Shown here piece by piece: positions 1 through 64,000 of a stretch of DNA of 64,000 nucleotides; position 1 is the first letter of the stretch, and the number at the start of each line of letters is the position of its first letter. Below the pieces are notes generated by a model, which made no database searches, had not been told where the DNA came from, and was given only the letters and a program-made list of their open reading frames with translations. Source of the stretch: a virus. The position numbers and the translations under genes were made by a program. The stretch is taken from the IMG/VR virus record IMGVR_UViG_3300045988_184219. One strand, 5' to 3'.

Positions 1-211
1 AATAGGCATTTTCAATCCTCCTAACGACAAACAACAACGACTCATCTGATGTATCTATTATATAACTTTTACAAGACAAAATCTTAAATATTTGATCGAT
101 GGAAGAAATAACATTATCCATTTTTAACAACAAACCGTTTCTTTGGTCTATAAATAAAAAAGCGGATAGCAGTTTTTCTTTCTGCCGTCACGCTTCAAAA
201 CAGACATGGTT

Positions 212-490
212 TCAGAATGACATCACAACAGTTTGATTGACACCATTTCCTACCATATCAGAGGTGTATTGGTCAACAACGCGCCCAACAGGAGCCATCT
301 CAACGATAGCATCACGAACACGCTCTTCTTCTGGATATTGAAAGAATAGCTCAACGCGACCTTTTTCGGCGTTTCGAAACGCGTACTTAGGATGGCGGTC
401 AAGAATGTCCTTGAGCCACTTCGGAACAACTCGCGAAATTCCACAACAATCTTTAACATTGAATGTTTCCAGTGCGCTACCATTCATCAT
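212..490 (-). CDS. hypothetical protein (92 aa)
   Basis: ORF with SD GAAAGGAAAA 7 nt upstream of ATG at 490; cassette promoter box at 533-555. Confidence 0.6.
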   Translation of the reverse strand: MMNGSALETFNVKDCCGISRVVPKWLKDILDRHPKYAFRNAEKGRVELFFQYPEEERVRDAIVEMAPVGRVVDQYTSDMVGNGVNQTVVMSF

Positions 491-634
491 TTTGCTATTT
501 TCCTTTCTCTTTCCAACAACTCAACGATTCCGATAGATTCATTATATAACTTTTCAGCCATGCAATCTGAAAGAAATAGCAGGAACAGTAACTTTTTTGA
601 GTCACCATCTCCAGCCATCCTTTTTTCTTTTGGT

Positions 635-1195
635 CTACCTACTTCCATGTCCAATCGGGTTCATCTCATCGACAACAGCCCCAAGCAACTGAACGGGCGA
701 CGGAACAAATTCCACATACCCATCATCGTCCTCAGAGAGTAACGGAATTGGATTGTACTCCCACCCGTAATGCCACGACCAACGGTAGGCGTGCTCATAT
801 CCACCGAGCGCAATCCACCCACCCCAGTCTTTCTCAAAGGGAGCCTTAAACGGTTCGCCGAGAGAGGTGTATGGGGCAATAATTCCAAACACAGAACTAC
901 AATCCCCAGCGGCGATAAGGTTCGCAATCAGTTCTTCGCGAGAGAAGAAATTGAGAAGTGTTGAGCCAACACCATCCAAATCGCCATTATTGTGGCAGTA
1001 GATAGAATATGTCTTTCCCTTCTTGAGAGTCATAGGACGGCTGTTCTCATACGCCACTTTCAGAGCGTCATCCACCTTCCGACGATCCGAACGCCGACGA
1101 ATCCAGTCATGGATGCGTGCAGGGAGGAGATTTGGATCGAATTGGACTTCAATGTCAAGTGTTGGGATGTACGAAATAAGTGCGCGAGTGCCCAT
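635..1195 (-). CDS. hypothetical protein (186 aa)
   Basis: SD GAAAGGA upstream of ATG at 1195; cassette promoter 1216-1240; no recognisable motifs. Confidence 0.6.
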   Translation of the reverse strand: MGTRALISYIPTLDIEVQFDPNLLPARIHDWIRRRSDRRKVDDALKVAYENSRPMTLKKGKTYSIYCHNNGDLDGVGSTLLNFFSREELIANLIAAGDCSSVFGIIAPYTSLGEPFKAPFEKDWGGWIALGGYEHAYRWSWHYGWEYNPIPLLSEDDDGYVEFVPSPVQLLGAVVDEMNPIGHGSR

Positions 1196-1288
1196 TTACA
1201 GAATCCTTTCTACGAACAAAGCCAATTTTGTTGTATAACTTTTTAGATAAAGAATGGCGGTTTTTATTTCCACCGCCATCCACACATA

Positions 1289-1567
1289 TCAGCACATCTG
1301 CCAGATCCCAGCATCATAACGCTCAATCAGTCCAAACTCCATGTAAGCGTTGAGCGCAAGAAACCCATCACGCGCAACAAGACGACGCAGATAATCCTCA
1401 TCGATCGTCAAACCAAGCTCTTCCGAATGACCGAGAATTGTGTCAATCGCAGCCTCATAGATGTCTTCAGACTCAACGTCACTCGCATAGTCGTGGAAAA
1501 TATACGCGATAGCTTCCTCGCCGAAAACCTTGTGTTCAGAAGGGAAAATCTTAAGCAAGTAAACCAT
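1289..1567 (-). CDS. small acidic protein, paralog family A (92 aa)
   Basis: N-terminus VYLLKIFPSEHKVFGEEAIAYIF matches 19087..19464 and 49239..49514; SD GGAAACGGAGAG before ATG. Confidence 0.65.
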   Translation of the reverse strand: MVYLLKIFPSEHKVFGEEAIAYIFHDYASDVESEDIYEAAIDTILGHSEELGLTIDEDYLRRLVARDGFLALNAYMEFGLIERYDAGIWQMC

Positions 1568-1830
1568 TTTTCACTCTCCGTTTCCTTGTTTAACAACTCT
1601 TTCGATGTATTTATTATATAGCTTTTTACGTAGCGAGACTGAGAAAACCTGCGAGATGGCGGGTTTTCTTTCGTTTTTTGTGGATCGCGACGGGAGAACG
1701 TTTTCCTTTGGTCTATCAACTCCACTCAGTGAGAAAACATAAACTTCATCAAAATTTTTCCTTTGGCGCATAAAAAAGAACCACCTTCCAAGGAAGATGA
1801 TTCTTTTGAGAGAAGACGCTCGCTCAGAAA

Positions 1831-2385
1831 TCAGACCGTAATCTGAACCTCACGCGGGTCAAGGACACGAACACCATAAGAACTCATATCCATCTGAGCC
1901 CCAATTTTGTTCATATGGTCGATTACCTCCTCGGGAACGTAGCGGTACGTCCCACGCCGCATTTCGTTGCGACGCTTCACCTCCTCGATAGGGAGAAAGG
2001 TAAAATCGAGAATAACGACAATAGCACGTCCTTGCGTCTCCTCAAGGACGATACGCTTGATGTCCTTGATTGCGCGACCGTTCATAAACGTCGCGTCAAT
2101 AAAGGTTGCACCTACCGCATTACCGACCTTGCAGGAGAGGCGGGAACGCAAGCACTCATGTGTGAGTTCCCATGCACGCCGTGAGACATTCTGATTAATC
2201 TCGTAAGTAAACTCACCGTCTCTTGTCGTCTCGATAGGAGGTGACAACATAAGGCGAAATGCATCAGGAGAAATCACATAATCATCGCAATTATTGTTGC
2301 GAAGCCATGTGCTCTTTCCAGAACCCGGCAAGCCACGCATGAGGACAACCGTGGCAGAACGGAGAGAAATTGCATGCTTTTTCAT
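1831..2385 (-). CDS. P-loop NTPase, kinase-like (polynucleotide kinase / zeta-toxin-like fold)
   Basis: Walker A GLPGSGKST near N-terminus, ~180 aa single domain; SD GAAAGGATGA before ATG at 2385. Confidence 0.65.
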   Translation of the reverse strand: MKKHAISLRSATVVLMRGLPGSGKSTWLRNNNCDDYVISPDAFRLMLSPPIETTRDGEFTYEINQNVSRRAWELTHECLRSRLSCKVGNAVGATFIDATFMNGRAIKDIKRIVLEETQGRAIVVILDFTFLPIEEVKRRNEMRRGTYRYVPEEVIDHMNKIGAQMDMSSYGVRVLDPREVQITV

Positions 2386-2536
2386 AATAAATCATCCTTT
2401 CTTCGGGCAATACACCTCTTGTATTACCCACCTAAAAACCTACTAAGCCAAAGAGAAAAATTTGGCTTCCAACAATTAAATCATACACCTATTTAACGCG
2501 AAATGGAAATTCTATACACAAAACAAGCAAAAACAA

Positions 2537-3581: not shown

Positions 3582-3926
3582 TTAGGCGCGAGAGTCTTTC
3601 AGCCGTTCCACCTCAGCCTCTAGGTTGCGAATCCTCTGTACAAGAACATCAACCATATCGTCGCGAAGGTAGATAATCCCGTAGGAAAAATCACCCATAA
3701 TCGGCACACCGCCATCATAACGCATAGGTTTCCCAATCTCTGCCAATGAAAGGTCGTCCATCTGCTTGCGCGAACACTTCTCATCGAACCAGTGGATAAC
3801 CTCGTTTGCACGCGCACGCATCGGTCGGTCAGACTGGGTGTTCTGATAGGTTTCGATTTCGTGCTTGAGACATTCTGCCTCGGAGGAGAATTCTTTGCCA
3901 TCGTTGGCGATAAATTTCGCAATCAT
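3582..3926 (-). CDS. paralog family B protein (114 aa; start moved to internal ATG with SD)
   Basis: NDGKEFSSEAECLKHE ... VDVLVQRIRNLEAE; SD AGAAAGAAGG 7 nt before ATG at 3926. Confidence 0.6.
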   Translation of the reverse strand: MIAKFIANDGKEFSSEAECLKHEIETYQNTQSDRPMRARANEVIHWFDEKCSRKQMDDLSLAEIGKPMRYDGGVPIMGDFSYGIIYLRDDMVDVLVQRIRNLEAEVERLKDSRA

Positions 3927-4166
3927 GTTTTGTCCTTCTTTCTGTTTGAGACAATAACTCAAGCGGCTGTTCTGATGTTTTTATTATATAACAAAATTGA
4001 GGTATGGGCGGGTGTTTTTGGTAGACGACAGGGAGAAATTAAACGGATTAACATAATTAACAGAGAAGAGTTAATTGAGTTAATTGAGTTAATTCCGTTT
4101 CCTTTGGTCTATAAAAAGAAAAGACTGTAAGCCATCGCCCACAATCTTTTCCTTTGGCACATCAGA

Positions 4167-4748
4167 TCAAACGATAAGTGCTCCATTGGCGTCAAACGAA
4201 AGATTCAGCTTCTCAATGTACTTCACAACAGAATCATCATTGTTCATATTGTCTAAGAAAACACGCTTCGTCTTCTCGGCAACCTCCGCACAAGCCGCAT
4301 CAAACCACTGAACGAGTAGCGCCTCAATTTCCTCTTTGGCATACTCCTTACCATCCGCGACAACAATCACACCTTGGTCGAGAACGACAGAAGCACTCGT
4401 TTTATGACTCTTACTCCCGCCCTTAACTTCGATAGAGAGGATAGAATCGAGTCCTTCCTCTACTTCAAAGAAAATGAGATCGAGAAGGTTGTCAATATCG
4501 TCACCATCTTCTGCAAACACATAAAAGCGAGCAATATCTATTCCGCCATCAGGAAGGAAAGTCTTCTCTAACACAGAAGAACAAATATCCTCAACGGGAG
4601 CAAAGTTATCATCATAGGGAACATTCCAATAGTAACGCTCAACAATGTCATTCACATGAGAACGGTAGAACGGTGTCTTACGGACGTTCTCGATAGCGAG
4701 TTTCTGAGCGGATTCGCTCAAATCAGAAAAAGAAAAAGTTGTAGGCAT
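4167..4748 (-). CDS. paralog family C protein (193 aa)
   Basis: N-term FSFSDLSESAQKLAIENV and C-term YIEKLNLSFDANGALIV match the ~14-member family. Confidence 0.65.
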   Translation of the reverse strand: MPTTFSFSDLSESAQKLAIENVRKTPFYRSHVNDIVERYYWNVPYDDNFAPVEDICSSVLEKTFLPDGGIDIARFYVFAEDGDDIDNLLDLIFFEVEEGLDSILSIEVKGGSKSHKTSASVVLDQGVIVVADGKEYAKEEIEALLVQWFDAACAEVAEKTKRVFLDNMNNDDSVVKYIEKLNLSFDANGALIV

Positions 4749-4863
4749 TCATATCATCCCTTCTAAAAAACCGATCTTTGATTACATTTATTATATAACA
4801 CGCGACAAAAAGCCGTTGAGAAAAAAGAAAATTTCTCAAATAAACGTTGAGAAGTTCAACATA

Positions 4864-6187: not shown

Positions 6188-6358
6188 ACGAAAAGAGCGC
6201 CCCTAGTCATCAGGACGCTCTCTCCGCGAGTTGTTAGTTGGTTTTAGAAAGGAGGATTCGCAACGGTGTTCCCCCGCCGCCCATTCTGCCACCATATCTA
6301 GCCGCTTGGCGACGGGGCACCGTTTGAGCCGTTCTGGGGTTCCGAACTCCCCTCGGCT
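6188..6358 (-). ncRNA. candidate small ncRNA cassette with 16S-3'-end-like tail (GGGGGAACACCGUUGCGAAUCCUCCUUUCUAAAACC) before terminator
   Basis: ORF-free GC-rich segment bounded by promoter-box variant TTTACTATTATAC (6361-6373) and hairpin+U-tract at 6196-6235; paralog at 32810..33005. Confidence 0.45.
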
Positions 6359-6435
6359 CATTTACTATTATACCTGTTTTGAAAATGTGTGCTGGGAGTT
6401 TTGCGCAACGGACGAGATTTTTTTGATAAACCAAA

Positions 6436-7155
6436 GGAAAAAAGAAAACGCCCCGCGACAAGCACGGGACGCTTTTTTGTCCTACTCCTCGGATGCAACT
6501 CACGCAGCACCCTTCCTGTTTCACCGACTACTTACGCGGGTTGTCCGCGACCTTCATCTCCACAGGCGCAACTTCCCCCACAGCAGGACGTACGGGGTAC
6601 AAACGGCACTCGCTCCACCTCTAGCCACAGGATGCGAGTTATTATCGGCTTCTCGGGGCTCACGCGGCGGGGTCACAGGACACCCTCACCCACCAGTTTC
6701 GCTCGCCACACCATCCGCTAATTTATTCCACCGTGGTTAGCCGTCATGAGGTCTTTGCGACGTAATATTTTCTATGTATCATCGTAGTTTATGGAGATTG
6801 CGCTCCAAATTAGTCCGTCACATCGGACGTTTGCCCGCCATCATAATTGCTTCTCCTCTCTAGGTCTTTGAAAACTTTGTTCAAAGTAGGGCTGTTTCCC
6901 GCATATCCGAATTATCGCGGAGCCATTATATCACCCGCCGCACCCCTCCATCGGAGTGCGTCTAGCACGCGGGGATTTTAACATTGTTTAGGCGGCACAG
7001 GGGATGCAGGGGTCGATTCCTGCGTCCTTGTGAGGGATTTGCTATCAGGAGGCTTATCGTTCCTCGCGTGTGCGCCGCAACATCCGCAGCGCGGGGCGAG
7101 TGTCGTGTCCTCTCTGTTCGATCCGCCCACCAACTTCTCGTCGGTGTCCCTCTCG
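6436..7155 (-). ncRNA. candidate large (~720 nt) structured ncRNA, copy 1
   Basis: No credible ORF, high GC, own promoter box TTTATTATAGCAGG at 7161-7174, intrinsic terminator (cguccc gugcuugucgc ggggcg + U-tract) at 6440-6480; ~85% identical paralog at 36500..37232. Confidence 0.5.
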
Positions 7156-7374
7156 ATGGTTTTATTATAGCAGGTTCGAACGAGGATGTGGAGAGTTTTT
7201 GTTAAACCAAAGATTTTCTTTTTGAAAAACTTTGCGGGCGGGGCGTTTGATGCGTGGGAGATGTGGAACGCGACGAAAGATTTTTACTTTTGGTTTATCG
7301 AATCCAACTGAACTGACAAAATCAACTCAGATTTCCGACTCTCCCGATTCGAATTTCTGACAAAAACGACTACT

Positions 7375-7402
7375 TGACAAGCAACTATTCCGACTACATA
7401 AT
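7375..7402 (+). promoter_or_regulatory. consensus sigma-70 promoter on + strand (TTGACA-16-CATAAT)
   Basis: TTGACA 7375-7380, CATAAT 7397-7402; related copies at 58868 and 37366. Confidence 0.55.
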
Positions 7403-7674
7403 CCACGCTATTTAAGATGCACCATTCCTTTGGTCTACCAATACAGACGCAACCAAAAACAAACATAAGTTCTAATAAACAAAAACAAAAAAACAACACA
7501 CCTGCAAAAGCAAGTGTGCCGTTTTTCTTCTCACCCAACAAGCCGCCCATCGCTCAGACACTCTGGGTTACGTCCCGCAAGGTATGTTACTACCATGCCG
7601 TCTGCAAAACACCCATTGTAAAAATCTTCTGCGCTTTGATGGATTTTCGCAAACAAGTCGAACATTTTGGTCTG

Positions 7675-7706
7675 GTTTCAATCCGCGCACCCGCGTAAGG
7701 TGCGAT
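7675..7706 (-). repeat. solitary CRISPR-like repeat unit (type I-C-like): minus strand ATCGCACCTTACGCGGGTGCGCGGATTGAAAC
   Basis: Close to the I-C repeat consensus GTCGCGCCCCGCACGGGCGCGTGGATTGAAAC, with hairpin plus GGATTGAAAC handle; no adjacent spacer or cas. Confidence 0.55.
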
Positions 7707-8044
7707 GGCAACACATAGCCAGATTCGCCAGTCCCAAGCACTCACCCATCCACTCAGTGTACAAAATCGACATTATTTTGAGAATCCGTTTCCACTTACG
7801 CATCCTTGCGTCCGTCCTCTCCGAGAGAAATGGTGCCGATTTTATGATCACTTGAGGTTCGCACTCGGACCGTTTACTTTGGCATATCTCACCGTCATTT
7901 GTGTTGCGGTTGTAAATTTTCGGTCGCCCCGCCCAACGACCTTCTTTTAGTCTATCGCGTCACCCAACCAAGCGACGGATTCGACCTTGCTAGACAATCA
8001 ATCGCCTCACCGCACCTTTCCTTTGGTCTATCAACAAAACATCA
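7707..8044 (-). other. conserved ~330-nt leader-like element abutting the CRISPR-like repeat (copy 1 of 3)
   Basis: Begins GGCAACACATAG; long near-identical blocks shared with 22093..22433 and 62271..62602. Confidence 0.5.
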
Positions 8045-8097
8045 ATTAAAAAAAAGTGTAGCACATTTTAAAAATATTTTTCTCCAAAAAACGAAAA

Positions 8098-8312
8098 CGC
8101 CTCGCCATATCTGACAGGGCATTTTCAAGGTGAAGGTGATCCAAAGATGGCTTCAGATGGTTACAGAAAAAGCGAGAAAGGTTCGCAAATGCCGAAGCAT
8201 GTCTGGAAGGGACGCTCTGGATGTTTGTCCGTTCTACTCATATTATACAACAAATCAAACATCTTCGAGACCACCTACGACGAACACACTAAAACGCCGC
8301 TGTCCCTTTAAC
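8098..8312 (-). ncRNA. candidate ncRNA cassette E1 (GGATGGTTACAGA...TTCGAGACCACCTACGAC family)
   Basis: ORF-free; promoter-box variant CAATTAAATTTTATCAC at 8313-8335; hairpin CGCCATATCTGACAGGGC at the 3' end; paralogs E3-E5. Confidence 0.4.
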
Positions 8313-8361
8313 AATTAAATTTTATCACAAAAAACAAATTTTGCAACAGCCATCATCTAAA

Positions 8362-8915
8362 ACGAAAACACCCCGCCATTGCTGACGGGGAGTCTTCGCT
8401 ATATGGAGATAGTCCTTCGGATGGTTACGGTGGGTTAAGTAGAGTCATGCACCCCACGACTAAAGCCGGGGTTTGTCCCAGCCGACACGCTTCCGAGCGA
8501 TGCGAGGTTCAGACGGTTGAGAGGGAAAGACCCTCCCGACCTCCCTTCGGTGGGCGGAACATAAGTGGCATGACAGCGCCCCGTGCAACGCAGGTCATGC
8601 CTACGTTGCCACATTTTTCAACGAGTGCCTTTGCGCTAAATTCTGCGCCTACAACGGTTCTCTCGTTGCTTAAATTGTACCGTTTTTCAAGGAGATTTTC
8701 AACAACTTTTAAGAAAACATCCTCGAAAAGTAAAGTTTGACCGCGCCGATTCCTCCACATGCCTGAAGGAAGGGGCTTCCTCGGCGATTGAGGTGAGTTT
8801 GGTAAGTCATCTTCTTCAAGGAGTGTGCCACTATGACGAAATGGGCAAAACCGACCGAGAAGGACGCTCTGTGTACAAGACACAAGAGACCACCCGCGAC
8901 TCAATGGAAAGCCAC
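8362..8915 (-). ncRNA. candidate ncRNA cassette E2 (contains the 77-nt block shared with 46456..46532)
   Basis: GC-rich; terminator CCCCGCCATTGCTGACGGGG + T-tract at 8365-8395; the overlapping ORF 8509..8943 has no SD. Confidence 0.35.
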
Positions 8916-8997
8916 TGTCCCTCTTATACTTTGAGTATAACATAAACGATTATATTTTTCAACATATTTTTCCTCTTGAACAATTAACAAAAGAAAA

Positions 8998-9192
8998 AGA
9001 AACCACCCTAGCCAAATAGACTAAGGTGGTTTTCGAAGGAGAAAACATTTTTTGGATGGTTGCAGAGCGGAAAGTAACGGTCTGGAAGAGATGCTCTTGA
9101 TGTTTTTTTGATGCAATCATGATCTTTGTTTTTTAACATCTTCGAGACCACCAACGACGTATATGGTTAGCAAAACGCCGTTATCTCTTTAA
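8998..9192 (-). ncRNA. candidate ncRNA cassette E3
   Basis: GGATGGTTGCAGAGCGG ... CTTCGAGACCACCAACGAC; promoter-box variant at 9193-9215; hairpin AAACCACC..GGTGGTTTT at 9000-9035. Confidence 0.4.
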
Positions 9193-9237
9193 CAATTAAA
9201 TTTTATCACAAAAAAGGTTGTTTTACAATACATCAAT

Positions 9238-9470
9238 TAACCAAAACAAAAGCGCCCCACCATTTCTGGCAGGACGCGGACGGAGTAGTCCTTTCGGGAT
9301 GGTTGCAGAGAGGGTTATCAATCCGACAAAAGAAGACCTGTCTGGAGGGAACGCTCTGAGCACCTGCTAGGCACAACACGCAGTCACGCCATGATGCTTT
9401 CGAGACCACCCACGACGAATTATGTCAGTCGCCGCTGTTCCCATGACATATAAAGTATATCAAAAACCAC
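9238..9470 (-). ncRNA. candidate ncRNA cassette E4
   Basis: CGCCCCACCATTTCTGGCAGG ... GGATGGTTGCAGAGAGG ... TTTCGAGACCACCCACGAC; ORF-free. Confidence 0.4.
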
Positions 9471-9598
9471 TTTTGTTTTCAACAATTTCTTGTTCTCGCA
9501 AAAAAACAAAATTATCTCTCACAAAAATCTAAAATCACCTTTCCATCCTTGTCAAGATGCCAAATTTTTCCATAGATAAAATTCAAATAGTTCTCCTC

Positions 9599-10818: not shown

Positions 10819-11166
10819 TCAAGCAGCGCCAACCTCATCTGGGTAAACACCCGTCAGAGATTCAACGAACCGACAGAGGAGATCATTCACAATCTCCGCA
10901 TCGCACGCAAGGTAATTGCGCGAGATGCGGTTGAATGACTCGACAAGCTCACGTCTCGGAACGACCGTTCCAAATGGTTCTCCCATTACAACGATGGCGG
11001 TATCAGGTGTAATCTGATACACGTCACCGAGGATGGAGTCCTCATCAACAACAGAACCGAAAGGAATCAAATTACGGAAAAGAGAATCCGCAACATGATT
11101 TTCGACCCCAATGACATTAGCGTACCTATTAAGTACGCCTTCTTTGGAAAGCCACCAAGTTGACAT
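10819..11166 (-). CDS. paralog family D protein (115 aa; start at MSTWW)
   Basis: Strong SD AAAGGAGGAG 5 nt before ATG at 11166; EPFGTVVP motif shared with 11421..11762. Confidence 0.6.
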   Translation of the reverse strand: MSTWWLSKEGVLNRYANVIGVENHVADSLFRNLIPFGSVVDEDSILGDVYQITPDTAIVVMGEPFGTVVPRRELVESFNRISRNYLACDAEIVNDLLCRFVESLTGVYPDEVGAA

Positions 11167-54193: not shown

Positions 54194-54452
54194 GTGGAGA
54201 ACGGGTCCCCTTTCTATTTTAATTGATGTATTTATTATATAACTTTTTTCGTCGTTTCGTTAAAATTTCTTGATATGCCAAAGAAAAAGGTTGGCGAGGA
54301 GGCGTTCTGTTTCAAGAGTGATTGGATGGCGGTGAGGAAGATTTTCCTTTGGTCTATCAAAAAACAAAAAAGAAAATGCGCCAAGTTGTCCCAAGCGCAC
54401 AATTTTGTCCAATACTCTGTCCTATTTATCCTAGGAAAGAACTATATATGTC

Positions 54453-55215: not shown

Positions 55216-55638
55216 TTAATATGTCGCTCCAAACTCCTCAGCCAATATCTCAACCAAAGAAGTATCCTTTCGTGGCTTTCCGCTAAGTTGTCCTACAACC
55301 AAAACAGATTCATACCGCGCACCACGCTTACCACGAAACTCCTGCTCAACCTTACCGTGAGAACGCGAATCAGACCACACCTTGTCACCGTACCAGCACC
55401 CACGTAGAGCTCGATAACAGGCGGGATAAGCCTGAGAGTCCCAAAGGACAGTGGCGAGCCAGATTGTGCCAGACGAGTAAACAATGACAACCGAGCCAGA
55501 TAAGATCGGATTACCACGCATATCTGTGTAGCCCGTGTCTACGCCGAGCTCACTCTCACGACGATCACGAGCCACATACTTTTCCTTCCGTACGCGTAGG
55601 TTACGGTACTTTTTGTTATCTGTACGACGCATCAACAA
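55216..55638 (-). CDS. hypothetical protein (140 aa)
   Basis: SD GAAAGGAAG before ATG; terminator AAGCCAACGAAAATCGTTGACTTT at 55185-55208. Confidence 0.55.
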   Translation of the reverse strand: MLMRRTDNKKYRNLRVRKEKYVARDRRESELGVDTGYTDMRGNPILSGSVVIVYSSGTIWLATVLWDSQAYPACYRALRGCWYGDKVWSDSRSHGKVEQEFRGKRGARYESVLVVGQLSGKPRKDTSLVEILAEEFGATY

Positions 55639-55896
55639 AACTTCCTTTCACATCAAGATGTTGGATGTATTTATTATATAATTTTTTCGAGAACTGGTTT
55701 TAAAAAAAAGAAAAAAACAATGAAAACCGTTGATCTTTTTGCAAATTTTTGTTCTAACCAACACTCATTTCGCTTTCAAGGTTTCAATCCGCACCCTCCA
55801 AATAAAGAGCGATAACAACATTCAGACTTGTCAAACATAAAACTAACAGAACTTAAAACAAAAGCGACAACCTAGAAAGGTCGCCGCCAATGTAAC

Positions 55897-56548: not shown

Positions 56549-57148
56549 TCAGATTTTGCAAACCCCACAAAATCCGTCCAACTCGGGCAAAACGAAGCAC
56601 ATCGGATTCCGCTCTGAAAGATAGGAGTCAACCTCACTATCATAGAACATCTTTCCTAAATACTCACGTCCTCGAAACGCCACATCCGAAAACATCTTCT
56701 GCGCAGGATCGGTCATCCAGTGGATAACGTCCTCAATATCCTCGTCGTCCAATCTCCACTCCCCACCACACTTAAACAGAATCTCCGTCATGGCATAGGA
56801 GAGATCAAAATCACCCATCAGGTCACGAGTGTCATCAGGAATCTTGTCCTCATCAGGCACAAGGGCATCCACAACCTGACGTGCCGCCACTTTGTTACCA
56901 ATCGTCACAACACGAAAATCAATAGAGATGTCGTGCGACACCCGACCATCTGCGAGAGTTGTCATATTGCGCCATGTGACATAGGCGTTCGTGCCGTTGC
57001 GTGGCATTCCCATCTTGCAGAGTTGTCGCTCGCAGTATTCGCGAGTCTTTTCAAGAGCGTAAGCGAGATAATTGGCGTTTCGCTTTGTGGCAGAGATGAC
57101 TTTCTGGCGAGAGATCATGCCAAGTTCGTTGTAGTTGTAGGTTTCCAT
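56549..57148 (-). CDS. paralog family C protein (199 aa)
   Basis: N-term YNYNELGMISRQKVISATK, C-term YLSERNPMCFVLPELDG. Confidence 0.6.
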   Translation of the reverse strand: METYNYNELGMISRQKVISATKRNANYLAYALEKTREYCERQLCKMGMPRNGTNAYVTWRNMTTLADGRVSHDISIDFRVVTIGNKVAARQVVDALVPDEDKIPDDTRDLMGDFDLSYAMTEILFKCGGEWRLDDEDIEDVIHWMTDPAQKMFSDVAFRGREYLGKMFYDSEVDSYLSERNPMCFVLPELDGFCGVCKI

Positions 57149-57324
57149 TTGAGTCCTTCCTTTCTGTGCGGGGAGAGTGCTTCGTTCAACTCATCTTGCA
57201 TATTTATTATATAACTTTTTAGATGAGCCCAAATGGAAAACGGAGCGGACGGGAGATTTTCTTTTTGCCGTCACGCCCCCGATCTCTCAGGACATCTCCT
57301 TTGGTTTATTCTCTTAACAACTCA

Positions 57325-57945
57325 CTAATTCCGCGCAGGAAGATCGTAGACAAGAGAACCATCCGCATCAAACAGATACCCCAATCCATCCTCGATCCAA
57401 GACATAATCGCACCATCCGTGTAGTATTCATCAATCATCTCAGATAGAGCCACATTTTCAGAGCGAACATACTTCTGCAACTCAACGAGAATATCCGTCT
57501 CAATTCGCCCGACCTCAATCTCGTCACCACCAAGAGCAACGACAGCGACCATTTCGCGGTTGTAATCCTGACCAACAACACCGACAATACTCGTCACATT
57601 GAGGTAATCATAGACAACATCCAAACCGAGCTCCTTTAGGAGATCCCACACAGAGTCGGGAGTATGTGCGGAAACAACCATTCTCTCAATGCGATAATTC
57701 GGAGTTCCATCGGGAGCATAACGATCAACCGATTCATCCATCGTACCGAGGCAGAGTGAGAAATCAACACCACAATCGGCAACAAGAAAGCCTTCTTTGA
57801 GGCGACGAACGAGATCGGGGTAGACGTAACCGTGGTAGAGGTACTTGTTCTTTCCACTGCGGAACGATTCAATGACCTCCCGCCGCACAGCGGGAGAGAG
57901 TACGCCGAACTTGATAGGGTTGGAGATGCGTTTGATTTCTGTCAT
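57325..57945 (-). CDS. paralog family C-like protein (206 aa; start at MTEIKRISN)
   Basis: SD AGAAAGGAAAATCAAC before ATG 57945; C-term WIEDGLGYLFDADGSLVYDL. Confidence 0.6.
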   Translation of the reverse strand: MTEIKRISNPIKFGVLSPAVRREVIESFRSGKNKYLYHGYVYPDLVRRLKEGFLVADCGVDFSLCLGTMDESVDRYAPDGTPNYRIERMVVSAHTPDSVWDLLKELGLDVVYDYLNVTSIVGVVGQDYNREMVAVVALGGDEIEVGRIETDILVELQKYVRSENVALSEMIDEYYTDGAIMSWIEDGLGYLFDADGSLVYDLPARN

Positions 57946-58073
57946 GTTGATTTTCCTTTCTGATGTCATTAACTAACTTTGTGTATTTATTATATAACTT
58001 TATTATGTTTTGTGTGGAGTGTTTTCGATAGACCAAAGGAAAAGCGCACCCAATTTGAGTGCGCCATTTTTCC

Positions 58074-58652
58074 TTAGTCGATGTCCTGCCCGTCCGACCA
58101 ATATAGGTCGTTCTTCCCAACCAGATAAGCGTCCACGGTGATGTCCCAGTACGCTTCCGAAAGAAGTTGGAGGACGTTGAGTCGAACCTTGGAACAGAGA
58201 ACATAGAGCGCGTCCCTTGCCCACATACCAGCTTTAAAGAAATCATCGTTTCCGATCTTTGCGTCCGTGTCAACATCACTGAAAACTCTGTCGTTGACGC
58301 AAACCGCGTTGATTTCCGCGAGTGTTTCGATAACACCGTCACAAATCGGATAGGTGGAGAGATTGCGAATTTTCCCGACGAACTTCTGAGTCGCCTCTTT
58401 ATTGTAGATTCCAAAATCCACACTCACAACCGCGCCGTACGGACGACCCTCCTTGTCCAGATCACCCTCCCAACCGACGTGGATCTCAACGTCGTTCTTA
58501 GTGAGTCCGAACTCATTGTAGAGCGTACTCTCTGCGTTCAGTCGCGCCGCTTCGATTGCGTGGGCGAGATAGGCGAGGCTTGCCTTTGTACGCGCCATAA
58601 CACGATCTTTTGCGACTGGGTGGAGGTCAACGTAGCACTCTTTTGTTTCCAT
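58074..58652 (-). CDS. paralog family C protein (192 aa)
   Basis: C-term YLVGKNDLYWSDGQDID; cassette block 58671-58707. Confidence 0.6.
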   Translation of the reverse strand: METKECYVDLHPVAKDRVMARTKASLAYLAHAIEAARLNAESTLYNEFGLTKNDVEIHVGWEGDLDKEGRPYGAVVSVDFGIYNKEATQKFVGKIRNLSTYPICDGVIETLAEINAVCVNDRVFSDVDTDAKIGNDDFFKAGMWARDALYVLCSKVRLNVLQLLSEAYWDITVDAYLVGKNDLYWSDGQDID

Positions 58653-58867
58653 AATTTTTCTTCCTTTCTTTTCAACAACTCTTGATGTATTTATTATATA
58701 ACTTTTCTTAGAAGGATGAGCGTATTTTCAGTAGGGAAAGTTTTTTTTGAAAAGAAATGTTGTCTGAGATGTGTCCTTTAGTCTATTCGCTCAAACCTTT
58801 CCGACAAAAGCGACTAATCCGACTCAGATTTCCGACTCATCCGACTTTCTCGACAAAACCGACTACT

Positions 58868-58896
58868 TGACGGGCAACCTTCCAGACTACATAATC
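58868..58896 (+). promoter_or_regulatory. sigma-70 promoter on + strand (TTGACG-17-CATAAT), antisense to gene 58987..59592
   Basis: Third copy of the CGACTACTTGAC...GACTACATAATCCAC module; conserved ~85-nt downstream region shared with 37395-37480. Confidence 0.5.
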
Positions 58897-58986
58897 CACA
58901 CACTCTCAGTCACACTTTTCCCTTGGTCTATCCACACAAAAACAGCGCACCCGCCACATAACGAGTACGCCGAATATCGCTCTAAA

Positions 58987-59592
58987 TCACTTTTCAGACG
59001 AAACAAGGATGTTTTTCTTGATTCCACTAATCGCTTCAAACAAGCGATCAAACGCTGCCTCTGTATCACCATCTAACCGATCTGTATGTCGAACCGAATA
59101 ATCGTCCAAAAGCACATTAGCGGCATCCAGAGCGACACAAAGAAAGTGTTCCGTCTCTCCACGATTGTTGTGCAACTGGTAGCGCGGAGCATAACTGTGG
59201 AACTCTGCCTCGGTCAGAATACCATCCAGAATCGCCTCGATAATTGCACGCTCAACGATGTCCTTGACATATTCGACCAAAGCACATCTCAGTTCCTCCT
59301 GACGGCATTTTCGTAGAGAGTCGAGTTGTGCCGAGAAAAGGTGGTACGGATCGTTTTCGCTCGTCAGAAGCTTTCCGTTGTGGGCAACATGAACTTCAAC
59401 AACATTGTCTTTGTCGTCTTTTACGAGGCGTGCGACGGTGGGGTTGTGGTTGTCCCCATAAAAAGTAATTGTGCCACATTCAAAACTGTGTTCCGAGACA
59501 GGCGAGCCAACGAGCATATTGATGATGTCGCCCTCAGAAATTCCTTTAGTATTTTGTGCGTCAAGAACGGTACGGATACTTTCAATAATCAT
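58987..59592 (-). CDS. paralog family I protein (201 aa)
   Basis: IIESIRTVLDAQ ... IEAILDGILTEAEF matches 59744..60361. Confidence 0.6.
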   Translation of the reverse strand: MIIESIRTVLDAQNTKGISEGDIINMLVGSPVSEHSFECGTITFYGDNHNPTVARLVKDDKDNVVEVHVAHNGKLLTSENDPYHLFSAQLDSLRKCRQEELRCALVEYVKDIVERAIIEAILDGILTEAEFHSYAPRYQLHNNRGETEHFLCVALDAANVLLDDYSVRHTDRLDGDTEAAFDRLFEAISGIKKNILVSSEK

Positions 59593-59743
59593 GTTGTTTT
59601 TCCTTTCTGATTGTTCAACAACTCAACCGATGGTTTTATTATATAACTTTTTTAGATAAGCCAAAGGGAGAAAATGACGGGAGAGTGGTTTTTCTTTCCA
59701 CCGACACATCCCGCCATCCGTTTGTTTCCTTTGGGCTATCAGC

Positions 59744-60361
59744 TTAATATCCTCTATCCGTGTGCTCCTTCAGAGCCTCCACAGACGCAACAACCTCGTC
59801 CATCCAGATCTCCATGTTCCGTTTATTCGCTCCGCCGTTCTCCATCGCCTCTTTCAGACTGGTTGAAACAGCGCAGAGGGTGCGGAGCGTACCGATGATG
59901 CTTTCGTTTTTAGACGCAAAGTCATACTTGACGGGAGGGGCAAAAAACTCATCCTCTGTCAGATAACCGTCAAGCATCGCCTCAACGACAGCTCGCTCCA
60001 TCAGTTCGACAACCTTGCCGATAAATGCGCCCCAACGGTCTGCGTCATTCAACTTCTGAAAGAAACGGAAGTCACCCTCATTGATAATGTGATGGCGGTC
60101 TCCTCTCTGAATGAGTGCGCCATTGACAACGAAGATGAGGTCGAGGTGGCGGGCGTGGCGGTCATAAATAAACTTAACCATGCGGTCAGAATGTCCATTT
60201 CCGTGAAACAGCAGATTCCCTATGTTATCACGAGCGTATTCAGCCGACTCATAGAGAATATTGCCCATCACCTGATTCAGTTTCTCGCGGTCGAACTTGA
60301 CCTCGCCAAAGCCGTCAACGCGCTGTGCGGAGATTGATTCGTTGATTTCCTTGATAATCAT
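59744..60361 (-). CDS. paralog family I protein (205 aa)
   Basis: IIKEINESISAQ ... VEAMLDGYLTEDEF. Confidence 0.6.
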   Translation of the reverse strand: MIIKEINESISAQRVDGFGEVKFDREKLNQVMGNILYESAEYARDNIGNLLFHGNGHSDRMVKFIYDRHARHLDLIFVVNGALIQRGDRHHIINEGDFRFFQKLNDADRWGAFIGKVVELMERAVVEAMLDGYLTEDEFFAPPVKYDFASKNESIIGTLRTLCAVSTSLKEAMENGGANKRNMEIWMDEVVASVEALKEHTDRGY

Positions 60362-60513
60362 TTGTTTTCTTCCTTTCTTCTAACAACCATTTCTTATTTT
60401 CATTATATAACTTTTTGCACACACAAAAACAAAAAATGACACTAACGGCAGTTTTCTTTCTACCGCCTGAGCCGCAATATTTCGCTTAATAGTTCCTTTG
60501 GTTCACTACTTTT

Positions 60514-61494: not shown

Positions 61495-61947
61495 TCAAGC
61501 AAGCGCGATAATACAGAATCGCTGGAACAACTCAATAGCTTTATCTTCTTTGACAACATTTAAATCGTCAGAGATAAGAAAACCTTCTGTCCGAACCTCG
61601 ATTTCTTCCGAACCTGCGATGGGGGTGAGTTCTATAACCTCAAGACTAGGGCGGTTAATATCAGGAGAGATCTCAACACGGAATCCGTGCTCGAAAACAC
61701 TGTATTGGACACGAACAATTCCTTTGAGTGTTTTAATGCCGATACGCCAAGAGTAGCGTTCCTCCTTGATCGCACGAAGGAATGAAGCGAGAGAAGGTGT
61801 GCCGTTGAGTATTTCTCCGCGAGGAGCCTCATCTTCGAGTACGCCACGCTCATAATCGGGCTGGTGAGGTAGGCGGTGGTCGTAGATGTACTTAATGATG
61901 TCCAAAGAGGAGATGAATGAGTGGATGGCGGAGTGAAGTTTTGTCAT
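61495..61947 (-). CDS. hypothetical protein (150 aa)
   Basis: SD AGAAAGGATAG before ATG 61947; cassette block 61975-62005. Confidence 0.55.
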   Translation of the reverse strand: MTKLHSAIHSFISSLDIIKYIYDHRLPHQPDYERGVLEDEAPRGEILNGTPSLASFLRAIKEERYSWRIGIKTLKGIVRVQYSVFEHGFRVEISPDINRPSLEVIELTPIAGSEEIEVRTEGFLISDDLNVVKEDKAIELFQRFCIIALA

Positions 61948-62074
61948 TTTTTTCTATCCTTTCTGTGAGAGATCTTTTAACAACTCTTGATAGATTTATT
62001 ATATAGCTTTTTACTAGACCAAAAGAGAAAAACGACACGCGAACAAGATTTTGTTTCTTGTAGGTGTGTCGTTT

Positions 62075-62270
62075 GTTTCAATCCGCGCACTCCATACAGA
62101 GTGCGATTTTGCGCTCAATGGCTTTATTGTCTCTCAGGTTTCAATCCGCGCACCCACGAAGGGTGCGATGGGCATAATTTCAACCCACACTACCTATACG
62201 GGTAGTGTTCTCTTTACACTGAGCACAATAGAATCGGGTTTCAATCCGCACGCCCTATACGGGGCGTGAT
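62075..62270 (-). CRISPR. mini CRISPR-like array, type I-C-like repeats: R1 62075-62107, spacer 62108-62137 (30 nt), R2 62138-62169, degenerate repeat ~62178-62207, spacer ~62208-62237, R3 62238-62270 (leader-proximal)
   Basis: Minus-strand repeats ATCGCACTCTGTATGGAGTGCGCGGATTGAAAC / ATCGCACCCTTCGTGGGTGCGCGGATTGAAAC / ATCACGCCCCGTATAGGGCGTGCGGATTGAAAC; constant GCGGATTGAAAC handle, hairpin stems kept by compensatory changes; no cas genes in the window. Confidence 0.55.
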
Positions 62271-62602
62271 GGCAACACATAGCAAAATTAACCAAATCCG
62301 CGCACTCACTACTCCACTCACCCATCAAAATCGACGTAATTTAGGAAATCCATTCCCGATCACGCATCCTTGCGTCGATCCTCTCCGAGAGAAACGTGTC
62401 GATTTTATGTTCGTTTAGGATTCGCACTAAAACTGTCCTTTGGCTAATCCAACCGTCATTTTTGTGTTGCGGTTGCAAGATTTCGGTCGCCACCGCCAAA
62501 CGACCTTCTTTTGGTCAAATTCACGTCGCCCAACCAAGCGACGGGTTCGACCTTGCTAGACAATCAACGGTCTCACCGAACCTTTCCCATTGGTCTATTA
62601 AC
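62271..62602 (-). other. conserved ~330-nt leader-like element (copy 3 of 3) adjacent to the mini-array
   Basis: GGCAACACATAG ... CGCATCCTTGCGTCGATCCTCTCCGAGAGAAA ... GCGGTTGCAAGATTTCGGTCGCC ... shared with copies at 7707 and 22093. Confidence 0.5.
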
Positions 62603-62702
62603 AAAACATCATTTACAGAGAGTGTAGCACAGATTCAAAAGAGTTTCCTGCAAAAAAGAAAAACCAACACATGATTTTTAAAATATGTGTTGGTTCTCGA
62701 CA

Positions 62703-63032
62703 TCAATCCGAAAGAGCAATCTTGAGGACGGAAACTGTCAGGGTCTCAAGGCTGATGAAGTGGTTGTATACCTCGTGGTATCCAGCATCATGCCCAGACT
62801 CCCACGCTTCGGCGAAAACTTCGTCGAAGATGGCGCGACCTCTCTCCATGCCAGCGAACTCGGAGTTCTTAAACACCAATGTCTTAAACTCCTCGTAGAC
62901 CTCACCAAGCCTACGGTTGTAGTCCCGATGAACGCCCGTAATCCCTTCGGTTGGAATGAGGCTTTTGTCCATATGGATAGTCCCAGCCTTAACCTCAAGC
63001 ACTCTCACCTCATCATAGATGTCTTTCTTCAT
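62703..63032 (-). CDS. hypothetical protein (109 aa)
   Basis: SD GAAAGGAGCG before ATG 63032. Confidence 0.55.
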   Translation of the reverse strand: MKKDIYDEVRVLEVKAGTIHMDKSLIPTEGITGVHRDYNRRLGEVYEEFKTLVFKNSEFAGMERGRAIFDEVFAEAWESGHDAGYHEVYNHFISLETLTVSVLKIALSD

Positions 63033-63106
63033 TTGTGAACGCTCCTTTCAAAATCAAAAACCAAACATCTTCTTAAATTATAACACTACAGCACACTCCA
63101 AACAAA

Positions 63107-63481
63107 TCAAACAAACGAATAATCCTTCGCTAGAGAAACATATCGCTCCAATTCCCCGCCAATCTCACGGAGAGCGGCGACAACATCATCACGCACCAGA
63201 AAATCGATCCCATTTTCCTCGATCCACTCACGGACATCGCTCGTGTTATCCTCATAATCCACGCGAACATCAATGGGATTCGCGACCTCGAACGAGACAC
63301 AAAAGTTGGCGTACTTCTTGTTCCCCAACTTATTATAACCAGTGTAGAGCGTATACGCCCGAACACGATGATGGTCCACAAGAACCGTCCAATCATCATA
63401 ACTATCTCCCGTCGGGAGCGCCTTTTCAACAAGATATTCCACTTTGTCTTGCTCTTTAAGATCCAGCGCAACTCGCATCAT
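63107..63481 (-). CDS. hypothetical protein (124 aa)
   Basis: Long ORF; cassette block 63525-63550. Confidence 0.55.
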   Translation of the reverse strand: MMRVALDLKEQDKVEYLVEKALPTGDSYDDWTVLVDHHRVRAYTLYTGYNKLGNKKYANFCVSFEVANPIDVRVDYEDNTSDVREWIEENGIDFLVRDDVVAALREIGGELERYVSLAKDYSFV

Positions 63482-63663
63482 ATTTTATCAAACTCGCTTT
63501 CCAAATCAACATTCAACAATTTAACTTACATTTTTATTATATAACTTTATTAAGCGACAAACACGCAAAAACACGGTAGGGCGCAAACTTTCTTTTTGTC
63601 AGCGCACCACCGCTAACCGTTCCGTTCCTTTGGTCTATCTAAAATAACAATCCAACCAAAGCC

Positions 63664-63981
63664 TTACTTGATTTCGATAATCATGCCCTTACTGTCTAGA
63701 ACAACACTTTCCCCTCTCAAAAACTCCAACAAAAACGCCTCATCATAATATCCATTAAACGCAACAAGAGATACCCGATGCACATTTTTCCCAACATCGG
63801 AAAGCCACTCCCGCACAGCCTTCTCTACCTGTAAAATTAACGACTCTGATTCCCTCAAATCCCCACTAACCTTAACACCACACCCGTTGAGGGAGTATAC
63901 GCCTGTAATCCTCAGTTTCTCGGGATAAGACAGCGGAAGATCCTCCACATTCGAGAACGAGAGAATCTGCTCAATTTCCAA
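63664..63981 (-). CDS. hypothetical protein (105 aa), close to the window edge
   Basis: ORF to 63981; upstream region truncated by the window. Confidence 0.45.
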   Translation of the reverse strand: MEIEQILSFSNVEDLPLSYPEKLRITGVYSLNGCGVKVSGDLRESESLILQVEKAVREWLSDVGKNVHRVSLVAFNGYYDEAFLLEFLRGESVVLDSKGMIIEIK

Positions 63982-64000
63982 GAGCGTGTTGGTTTTTAAT

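Follow-up and report, generated by a model that had tools for sequence, protein, structure and literature searches.

Promoter-early stem-loops (PeSLs) have been described in the T4-like myoviruses RB49/phi1, T4/PST and KVP40/nt-1 (Arbiol 2010, PMC2839356; Comeau 2014, PMC4122927). They are built in the order stem-loop, AT-rich stretch, promoter with -35 and -10 hexamers at about 17 nt spacing, Shine-Dalgarno (SD) sequence and start codon, cluster in hyperplastic regions of small orphan genes while being rare in core modules, and lie at or beside the indels and replacements that distinguish close relatives; their crossover points fall either after the -10 box but before the ATG or within the AT-rich part, and excised mini-circles made of one module and a gene are a further trait of PeSLs. 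Here we describe modules of a similar kind in a 64-kb stretch of DNA (IMG/VR record IMGVR_UViG_3300045988_184219, 64,000 nucleotides; hereafter, the window), where about 85 small, mostly unknown genes lie on one strand. We consider it likely that these modules, each composed of an intrinsic terminator, a promoter without a -35 hexamer and a ribosome-binding site, separate the small orphan genes of a plasmid-like oral element.

The window modules show the same order of parts, with a hairpin upstream of the promoter and an SD sequence and start codon after it, and they too are concentrated in a region of small orphan genes and rare among core genes. Replacements between close relatives at or beside modules are represented by a chimeric module, whose crossover falls after the 3' arm and before the -10 box, and by 42-66-nt overlaps, although alignment ends as a whole are not enriched at modules over random spacer positions. 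Unlike PeSLs, the modules have no -35, a longer conserved block (~26 nt around the -10 box), and terminators with inverted arms, a near-constant hairpin of 39-45 nt and a conserved A-rich loop; they number ~40 in 64 kb, within a region that extends over at least 64-82 kb; and their replicon looks plasmid-like, neither the window nor ~110 kb of a relative having shown T4 core genes or virion genes. By analogy, they appear to work like PeSLs without being PeSLs by descent, because T4 genes and a -35 hexamer are both missing.

The design also recalls that of a giant virus. For Mimivirus, Suhre in 2005 and Byrne in 2009 reportedly described an early promoter, AAAATTGA, together with an intergenic 'hairpin rule' for transcript 3' ends. 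In both cases, a giant mobile genome has a single short promoter motif ahead of a large proportion of its genes and a palindrome behind nearly all of them; Mimivirus, however, is a eukaryotic virus with its own polymerase, and there is no known role in cassette exchange.

Predicted Promoter Box and Leader

On the minus strand, the block AAAAA-GTTATATAATAA-AtacATC occurs 44 times in the window at up to 2 mismatches. Searched as its plus-strand form TTATTATATAAC (GTTATATAATAA on the minus strand), the box gave 54 matches at up to 2 mismatches, against 4.8 expected from dinucleotide shuffles; 44 of these lie on the minus strand, and those on the plus strand are palindromic echoes of the same sites. 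The consensus set likewise counts 36 boxes on the minus and 2, palindromic, on the plus strand. The sequence-only reading that preceded this work had proposed a stereotyped unit of ~130 nt repeated more than 40 times: the recurrence holds for the box, but the complete unit, of ~110 nt, is found only ~12-16 times (alignment A2). Plain TATAAT with diverged flanks was seen in at least 10 further long spacers.

The box consensus contains a perfect TATAAT within a conserved block of ~26 nt around the -10 position. No -35 hexamer is present in the consensus of 36 window copies or of 274 family copies, and a hexamer scan found a -35-like partner for only a few boxes. TTGGTC, which is part of the 3' arm, was rejected as a -35 because it lies only 13-15 nt from TATAAT, too close for that role. 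The T-tract and A-run at about -45 to -17 could act as an UP-like element offsetting the missing -35.

Position relative to genes is conserved, as the box ends 32-69 nt (median 46) from the start codon in 37 of 40 intergenic copies, and the start codons that follow are preceded by a AGAAAGGA ribosome-binding site (GAAAGG in 26 of 37 leaders; an SD sequence in 34 of 39 units). The earlier reading had staked itself on the blocks keeping their position relative to start codons and, with this spacing conserved, it withstood the comparison; its assignment of a TATAAT -10 box and an extended SD to the transcribed strand also fits the position, strand and folding data. Its description of the array as monocistronic was borne out in part: 17 of the 40 box-defined units hold a single gene, whereas 11 hold two and 12 hold three to six.

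A conserved element in the 5' untranslated region (5'UTR) had been proposed as well, and here the outcome was mixed. The leader motif GAGTTGTTGAA (up to 2 mismatches) is a positioned element, mostly 9-12 nt past the box, and is found in 99 of 296 promoter contexts in the family, where only a few would be expected from its overall density in the family DNA (506 matches in 1.14 Mb, both strands). With 13 of 39 units in the window, only about one third of units carry it, and it is not universal. The 17-nt leader string TTCAACAACTCTTGATG has 2 exact copies and 5 at up to 3 mismatches, and GACCAAAGGAGAAAA has 7 copies at up to 2 mismatches. Moreover, the 9 nt right after the box are only 79.4% identical between the window and related loci, below the 84.7% of other spacer DNA, which weakens the claim of a conserved 5'UTR. 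The element GAGTTGTTGAA marks a subclass of the promoters; that it serves as an operator is speculation.

These identities, obtained from 149 alignments of the window to related loci, reach 94.9% in the -10 box, 92.3% in the A-run and 88.7-90.4% in the arms described below, with 90.4%, 93.7% and 72.2% at codon positions 1, 2 and 3, respectively. The box is under purifying selection, at a level of conservation that matches second codon positions.

Recent tandem gene duplication, with the promoter copied together with its gene, is contradicted by the data and hardly credible as the source of these repeats. Twelve paralogue families at 20-50% protein identity do take in 37 of the 86 window proteins, and several are tandem, as are seven consecutive genes at 14629-18850. 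The boxes before paralogues, however, agree at 10-12 of 12 positions, and the identical box stands before unrelated genes (helicase, TnpB, DUF4314), so recent duplication does not explain the repeats; the consensus is also identical in 274 contexts of the relatives. The seven genes at 14629-18850 (~160 amino acids each, 20-31% identity) mostly carry a box of their own and thus look like an old tandem family kept as separate units.

Predicted Terminator Hairpins and Inverted Arms

Along the coding strand, the full unit (alignment A2) runs from ATAGACCAAAGGAAA through 10-20 nt, a GC-rich stem, the loop (A)AAGAAAA and the returning stem to CCGTTTTTCTCTTTGGTCTAT, (T)AAAAA, GTTATATAATAA and AtacATCAA. 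The arms ATAGACCAAAGG and CCTTTGGTCTAT are inverted repeats that often bracket the strong hairpin and U-tract usually present upstream of the box. As 12-mers at up to 2 mismatches on the coding strand, the 5' arm ATAGACCAAAGG has 41 copies and the 3' arm CCTTTGGTCTAT 25, with ~2.5 expected, and TTTGGTCTAT gave 59 matches at up to 1 mismatch (4.9 expected), distributed over both strands in the way expected of an inverted-repeat arm. A recognisable 5' arm is present in 15 of 39 units and a 3' arm in 12 of 39. The order on the strand is gene, 5' arm, (3' arm), promoter, gene, and arms or hairpins start 0-30 nt past many stop codons.

The hairpins have z-scores of -2 to -7 against shuffles. In 12 of 18 units they are 39-45 nt long with an A-rich loop of 6-9 nt, the U-tract following immediately, and in 11 of 18 they end 23-27 nt ahead of the box. 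Several Watson-Crick pair types occur at every stem position while the loop and flanks are constant, and in some units the two arms pair and lengthen the stem. Having a GC-rich hairpin and then a U-tract downstream of the stop codon on the coding strand, these structures have the features of intrinsic terminators. In two spacers, short tandem repeats (minus strand, ~36370-36450 and ~4040-4100; four copies of GTTGACCTT and the TTAACTCAATTAAC type, respectively) form long AT-rich hairpins, unlike the usual GC terminator.

Units of ~85 nt that are bounded by terminal inverted repeats of 12-16 nt and occur in many copies, in a context rich in insertion sequences (IS), would also suit selfish palindromic repeats, similar to miniature inverted-repeat transposable elements (MITE) or repetitive extragenic palindromes (REP), that spread in spacers and to which the box is incidental. 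We regard this explanation as highly improbable, given that the orientation is fixed (the A-rich loop is always on the coding strand), as is the distance to box and stop codons, that only 9 of 66 arms fall inside coding sequence, that no RAYT or TnpA(Y1) gene was found among the window proteins, and that selection on the box is as strong as reported above.

Proposed Expression Unit

The features described above suggest the following composite unit. Directly after the upstream stop codon would come the 5' arm ATAGACCAAAGGAAA, then a GC-rich hairpin of 39-45 nt with an A-rich loop (AAAGAAAA) and a U-tract running into the 3' arm TTTTCTCTTTGGTCTAT, the three together forming a putative intrinsic terminator, probably bidirectional. 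The predicted promoter, an A-run and an extended -10 (AAAAA-GTTATATAATAA) without -35, would follow 23-27 nt on; transcription would start near the ATC and yield a leader of 32-69 nt, about one third of the leaders carrying the positioned palindromic element, and the AGAAAGGA ribosome-binding site and ATG would end the module. Such a module would stop transcription of the preceding gene and restart it from a uniform, strong promoter, so that each gene or short operon would be an insulated unit of one co-regulated class. The promoter would be read by the primary sigma factor of the host, of which TATAAT is the consensus, or by an RpoD-like sigma factor found in relatives. Moreover, the same 40-110 nt lie between unrelated genes and could therefore act as portable homology, through which recombination would delete, insert and reorder cassettes among related elements.

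Relatives and Cassette Exchange

The earlier reading had suggested that phage and plasmid databases be searched for the motif; at the megablast level, INPHARED and PLSDB held nothing similar to the window and no near match to the element. In the literature, the motifs gave only chance matches to pneumolysin primers. The box pattern alone pulled out one 145-kb IMG/VR contig and many contigs from metagenomes; among the latter are long-read contigs from saliva (BNJU01004582.1, 406 kb, and BNJS01002811.1, 484 kb; accession series of Yahara 2021) and some of 244-256 kb (ERZ7730xx). A box search of a genome collection gave mostly chance single matches and a 14-mer arm probe was non-specific in IMG/VR. 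The window belongs to an element family of human oral metagenomes, present in many assemblies, of which we found no prior description. Saccharibacteria were rejected as the host: the three TM7 matches are a tandem gene family of ~300 amino acids with full -35/-10 promoters and no protein similarity to the window, and are a product of the search pattern. These loci (L011, L052, L059) are paralogue arrays in which each gene has a terminator followed by TTGACA, N17 and TATAAT, near-identical to the window box around -10; a similar module design is seen, therefore, in an unrelated oral lineage.

Across 506 kb of related loci we counted 313 boxes, 308 of them on the major strand, and the consensus was unchanged over 274 distinct contexts. 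The relatives are mosaics: they match the window at 77-94% identity segment by segment, and the segments are arranged differently. Non-coding DNA makes up 32% of the window and takes in 67% of the 144 distinct alignment ends. In several cases a single module of a relative joins two window modules, with overlaps of 42-66 nt overall. In L194 (5300-5450), the terminator of the 62.0-kb module is fused to the leader of the 59.6-kb module, and the four genes at 61947-59744 are missing (the chimeric module, alignment A3). In L003 and L169, overlaps of 42 to 63 nt join the 59.6- and 58.7-kb modules, and a junction in L085 joins the 50.1- and 57.2-kb modules. A 6.1-kb segment (49552-43409) is absent as a whole from L003 and L194, with the junction inside a promoter module. 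Two non-coding repeats were also noted in this comparison. A spacer repeat of 125-160 nt (58811-58972, 37352-37473, 7315-7445) is found in relatives too (L194 17354-17511), and one synteny break lies within it; a second segment (8436-8786 and 46454-46537) is 85-93% identical to many related loci and adjoins the IS3-type transposase region at 46.5 kb.

Integrons and superintegrons share with the window one-directional arrays of small, mostly unknown genes, separating imperfect palindromes that are conserved mainly at their own ends and a cassette content that varies between relatives, and the arms ATAGACCAAAGG and CCTTTGGTCTAT could in principle be hairpin-folding recombination sites that bound a cassette slot. 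They flank variable content, which may be a hairpin only, a gene with a hairpin or a non-coding module of 570 nt (arms 62598...62025); downstream of the helicase gene, both arms (52446...51902) are common to the window and L194, with a 108-amino-acid gene and hairpin between them in the former and 110 nt in the latter. Moreover, one deletion junction lies exactly in two 3' arms (3547|6147), and the arms are more conserved than other spacer DNA. An integron-like, site-specific system is, however, very unlikely. No IntI and no tyrosine or serine recombinase domain was found in 83 window proteins, nor an IntI or recombinase domain in the scanned parts of the relative; the attC cores RYYYAAC ... 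GTTRRRY are absent from the arms; junction positions are heterogeneous; the palindromes end in U-tracts and keep a fixed register with the promoter, as terminators do; and each cassette has its own promoter (~40 boxes and the plain TATAAT spacers), instead of a single Pc. The resemblance to integrons, which the sequence-only reading had itself called superficial, is just that.

Several points weigh against the composite terminator-promoter interpretation preferred here. Promoter and terminator activity, the sigma factor used and the mechanism of recombination are predictions from sequence. Only a minority of units carry all blocks. Covariation between orthologous hairpins is weak (18 double changes compensated against 11 broken; 171 single changes keeping a pair against 176 breaking it), and RNAalifold found no consensus structure in the paralogue alignment, because paralogue stems are out of register. 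The alignment ends lie no closer to boxes or arms than random spacer positions do, and several junctions are in other repeats or at gene ends, so the modules are one recombination substrate among several; the proposal of cassette shuffling by recombination within the repeats is thus supported by the mosaic relatives and the chimeric module, but not by an enrichment of breakpoints at repeats over spacers. In addition, the sigma factor gene was seen only in relatives and not in the window, and IMG/VR files the 145-kb relative as viral, contrary to a plasmid reading.

Replicon Context

The layout of the replicon was followed by walking along the 145-kb relative, covering the window and ~110 kb (22.9-132 kb) of that contig. 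Its cassette region spans at least 22.9-105 kb (at least 82 kb), and at least 64 kb in the window. Beyond it lie genes for a single-stranded DNA-binding protein (SSB) and methyltransferases, then a Tad pilus set (TadA, TadB, TadC, CpaB and a TadZ-like ATPase), near which are encoded a tubulin/FtsZ-family (TubZ-like) protein, NADAR, a Rep_3 initiator, Omp85 and a 467-amino-acid sigma-70-family protein. In another contig, a prepilin peptidase gene and one unannotated gene separate a DnaG-like primase gene from the sigma gene, which is the third gene downstream of it. The sigma factor is 35-41% identical to cellular RpoD over the C-terminal half. A gene set made up of this divergent RpoD-like sigma and the DnaG-like primase, with Rep_3, Omp85 and a Tad locus nearby (L324 1256-2659, L328 6527-11251), is unusually chromosome-like for a plasmid. 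In ~37 kb of core genes, the relative has no box other than GTTGTATAATAA, 47 nt before Rep_3. This confinement to the orphan-gene region agrees with the shared regulatory class proposed earlier, for which the relatives' own RpoD-like sigma is a candidate common sigma factor. Altogether, the element looks like a giant plasmid-like replicon rather than a phage, in a host with an outer membrane, as suggested by the Omp85 gene; Rep_3 and TadA had only distant matches in PLSDB and gave no host clue.

If the window were instead the early or host-takeover region of a jumbo phage, the modules would be PeSLs proper, acting as early promoters read by the host RNA polymerase on infection. Their architecture is identical to that of PeSLs, IMG/VR lists the 145-kb relative, the SNF2 helicase has its best annotated match in a 484-kb uncultured phage (40% identity), and tubulins of the TubZ/PhuZ type occur in phages too. 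No capsid, portal, terminase or tail gene and no T4 core gene was found in the window or the ~110 kb of the relative, however, and the relative carries an iteron-type Rep_3 initiator, DnaG, the RpoD-like sigma, the Tad pilus and Omp85; the uncultured huge phage (LR756508.1) was rejected as a relative, as it has no shared motif and only the helicase and TnpB-like genes in common. We therefore hold a phage origin to be unlikely, and the phage host-takeover setting evoked by the earlier reading gave way to a plasmid-like one (Rep_3, DnaG, sigma, Tad pilus).

Conjugative plasmids offer another setting. The gene content of their leading regions, known as anti-defence islands, was reportedly set out by Samuel and Burstein in 2024. 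The window and its relative share with them a uniform gene orientation, SSB, orphan C5 and other methyltransferases, many small unknown genes, anti-defence-type genes, NADAR, DUF4314, an SNF2 helicase, a polynucleotide-kinase-like protein, mimics of CRISPR (clustered regularly interspaced short palindromic repeat) units in the same region and a plasmid-type replicon. In the leading region of a giant conjugative plasmid, early genes would be switched on at entry, each from a strong promoter, a setting that is compatible with the composite modules. It is a possibility, though a doubtful one: the DNA examined yielded neither a relaxase or coupling protein nor VirB4 or oriT, and the region (at least 64 kb here, at least 82 kb in the relative) is several times longer than those described. 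Moreover, the folds leave the box unpaired, on the 3' side of the hairpin, so the promoters, duplex and outside hairpins, are not single-strand promoters of the Frpo type.

Inocles, giant extrachromosomal elements of oral Streptococcus (24-32% GC, ~1.1 kb per gene; Kiguchi 2025, PMC12340149), resemble the element in their origin from saliva, size of hundreds of kb, richness in IS, gene orientation along the replichore and mostly unknown genes; the words promoter, terminator and intergenic do not occur in that paper. An Inocle origin was rejected because GC content differs (~44% in the window, with 0.75 kb per gene), and the Omp85 gene of the family suggests an outer-membrane host.

A bolder proposal is that the element is an autonomous system of expression and diversification, with more than 80 kb of orphan, probably anti-defence, genes, whose own RpoD-like sigma reads the 26-nt, -35-less promoter class confined to this region and whose conserved arms around each terminator are sites of a recombination activity that adds and removes promoter-bearing cassettes, as an 'integron with promoters' unrelated to IntI/attC. 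We judge this improbable.

Should the interpretation of the modules as composite terminator-promoter units hold, modules that combine insulation with portable homology would not be peculiar to T4-like phages, and a convergent solution would exist in a giant plasmid-like element. It would also give a reading rule for 'dark' regions, in which one module means one expression unit, a ready probe for relatives in the form of the box, and a testable route by which large mobile elements could gain and trade orphan genes. What appears new here is that modules like PeSLs occur outside phages, in a giant oral element without prior description; that the promoter lacks a -35 but has a 26-nt conserved block and a candidate dedicated sigma; and that the terminators are stereotyped in size, their loop and inverted arms being conserved.

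Gene Content and Feature Coordinates

A self-trained gene caller placed 86 genes in the window, 84 of them on the minus strand, and its calls agree with public calls on identical short contigs. The GC skew is monotonic, which agrees with a single replichore whose genes run in the direction of replication. About 11 of 83 proteins had Pfam matches (~87% had none), namely two TnpB, an IS3-type transposase, a C5 methyltransferase, the SNF2 helicase, SPFH, NADAR, DUF4314, an AAA_33 kinase and an XRE-type helix-turn-helix (HTH) protein. By exact look-up, two window proteins are on record, in short Logan contigs only, and the SNF2 helicase is not. A search of 1.84 billion representatives with one typical cassette protein gave 5 matches, of which a full-length cluster at 99% identity is in effect the protein itself; the others are two fragments, a 199-amino-acid protein at 26% identity and a spurious one. 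Three IS-derived genes lie within the array (TnpB 43477-44823, TnpB 23464-24621 and an IS3-type HTH transposase, 46850-48154). The only convincing plus-strand operon (27736-28359 and 28356-28667) encodes the XRE-type HTH protein of 207 amino acids and an unknown protein of 103, and runs divergently from the module at 27481-27492; its products may regulate the promoter class or form a toxin-antitoxin-like pair. The coordinates of modules and repeats are collected in Table 1.

Table 1. Boxes, leader elements, terminator hairpins and CRISPR-like repeats of the window. Exact, box identical to GTTATATAATAA; distance, nt from box end to start codon.
Feature	Position	Strand	Sequence	Distance	Downstream gene	Arms and remarks
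Box	63534-63545	-	GTTATATAATAA	52	63107-63481 (ATG)	5' arm 63638
Box	61996-62007	-	GCTATATAATAA	48	61495-61947	3' arm 62025; UTR motif
Box	60400-60411	-	GTTATATAATGA	38	59744-60361	
Box	59636-59647	-	exact	43	58987-59592	both arms (59739, 59667); UTR motif
Box	58691-58702	-	exact	38	58074-58652	exact UTR motif 58671-58687
Box	57987-57998	-	exact	41	57325-57945	3' arm 58039
Box	57204-57215	-	exact	55	56549-57148	5' arm 57309
Box	55671-55682	-	ATTATATAATAA	38	55216-55632	
Box	54232-54243	-	exact	38	SNF2 helicase 52460-54193	
Box	51849-51860	-	exact	56	51370-51792	3' arm 51902
Box	50724-50735	-	exact	43	50300-50680	
Box	50054-50065	-	exact	49	49660-50004	5' arm 50157
Box	49562-49573	-	exact	47	49239-49514	
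Box	49078-49089	-	GTTATACAATAA	41	48425-49036	3' arm 49129
Box	46228-46239	-	exact	47	45698-46180	
Box	45612-45623	-	exact	45	45210-45566	
Box	45105-45116	-	GCTATATAATAA		none directly downstream	precedes second module 44884-44895
Box	44884-44895	-	exact	60	TnpB 43477-44823	3' arm 44913
Box	40427-40438	-	GTTATATAATAT	33	39848-40393	5' arm 40533
Box	39104-39115	-	exact	49	38482-39054	both arms (39243, 39170)
Box	36344-36355	-	exact	50	35943-36293	
Box	35479-35490	-	exact	40	DUF4314 35208-35438	first of five-gene unit; 3' arm 35508
Box	33605-33616	-	GCTATATAATAA	45	33215-33559	
Box	30741-30752	-	exact	41	30223-30699	no strong upstream hairpin
Box	27481-27492	-	ATTATATAATAA	58	26931-27422	faces only plus-strand operon
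Box	26290-26301	-	exact	32	25823-26257	3' arm 26358
Box	24790-24801	-	GCTATATAATAA	168	TnpB 23464-24621	5' arm 24894
Box	19534-19545	-	exact	69	19087-19464	
Box	17649-17660	-	GCTGTATAATAA	42	17130-17606	5' arm 17769
Box	17024-17035	-	GTTATATAATTT	132	16466-16891	
Box	16334-16345	-	GTTATATAATTT	47	15771-16286	both arms (16469, 16401)
Box	15156-15167	-	exact	47	14629-15108	
Box	14607-14618	-	ATTATATAATAA	38	14077-14568	exact UTR motif 14587-14603
Box	13313-13324	-	GTTATATAATTA	44	12648-13268	3' arm 13380
Box	11218-11229	-	GTTATATAATTT	51	10819-11166	
Box	4788-4799	-	exact	39	4167-4748	
Box	3981-3992	-	exact	54	3582-3926	5' arm 4112
Box	1611-1622	-	GCTATATAATAA	43	1289-1567	5' arm 1716
Box	1228-1239	-	GTTATACAACAA	32	635-1195	
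Box	539-550	-	GTTATATAATGA	48	212-490	5' arm 638 overlaps TAG stop of gene 635-1195
Box	55-66	-	GTTATATAATAG		gene running off window start	
5'UTR element, exact	14587-14603	-	CATCAAGAGTTGTTGAA			TCAA-N6-TTGA palindrome; begins at ~+1
5'UTR element, second exact copy	58671-58687	-	CATCAAGAGTTGTTGAA			
Terminator module	59660-59745	-	loop GGAAAGAAAA			outer arms pair, inner GC stem, U-tract; -27.9 kcal/mol, z -2.45
Terminator module	24812-24900	-				paired arms; -26.5 kcal/mol, z -2.1
Terminator hairpin	46250-46320	-				A-tract/U-tract extension; -27.6 kcal/mol, z -5.7
Terminator hairpin	35500-35575	-	loop AAAGAAAA			3' arm; -19.5 kcal/mol
Terminator hairpin, 18 bp	51870-51960	-				3' arm; -34.2 kcal/mol, z -7.2
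Terminator hairpin	62018-62075	-				3' arm; z -4.2; kept in L194, there joined to 5'UTR of 59.6-kb module
Terminator module	57228-57315	-				5' arm, degenerate 3' arm; -28 kcal/mol
Terminator hairpin, 17 bp	44905-44965	-				A-rich 15-nt loop; z -5.0
Terminator hairpin	49585-49660	-	loop GAAAAAA			z -3.4
Terminator hairpin	40450-40540	-	loop AGAAGAAA			5' arm; z -3.3
Terminator hairpin	63558-63645	-				5' arm; 3' arm degenerate
CRISPR-like repeats, mini-array	62238-62270, 62138-62170, 62075-62107	-				degenerate fourth near 62185-62215
CRISPR-like repeats, solitary	55781-55813, 22061-22093, 7675-7707	-				

CRISPR-Like Repeats and Other Non-Coding Elements

On the coding (minus) strand, the window contains six 33-nt units like type I-C CRISPR repeats, three in a mini-array and three solitary, which end in GCGGATTGAAAC and whose hairpin stems covary between copies. 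The repeat end ...GGATTGAAAC is one that we take to belong to type I-C. Rfam held nothing at gathering thresholds, and the only noteworthy sub-threshold match was CRISPR-DR9, to these repeats (19.9 bits). Related loci (506 kb) contain 71 such repeat ends. No cas genes were found in the window, the two mini-array spacers had no match in a phage collection, and a literature search for the repeat returned one unrelated genome paper. The solitary units resemble the solitary-repeat RNA anti-CRISPRs described earlier (PMC10651486), and the six units are possibly RNA anti-CRISPRs of this kind or mini-arrays. Such mimics of CRISPR repeats fit an anti-defence role of the region; together with the anti-defence-type genes, they make the cassettes good candidates for new anti-defence functions.

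A conserved non-coding element of ~400 nt begins near the ATAGACCAAAGG motif and ends in a CRISPR-like repeat. It has three copies on the minus strand of the window (62271-62662, 22094-22483 and 7708-8096) and others in L194 (1022-1440, 4811-5236 and 19727-20146). Its consensus fold (alignment A4) reaches -90.8 kcal/mol with 8 pairs showing compensatory change, without an Rfam match, and it may be a leader or a structured RNA. Finally, positions 6211-9598 form a 3.4-kb stretch without a convincing gene in an otherwise dense region; a relaxed Rfam search there gave nothing credible, and the stretch holds at least three different non-coding repeats and one solitary CRISPR-like repeat.

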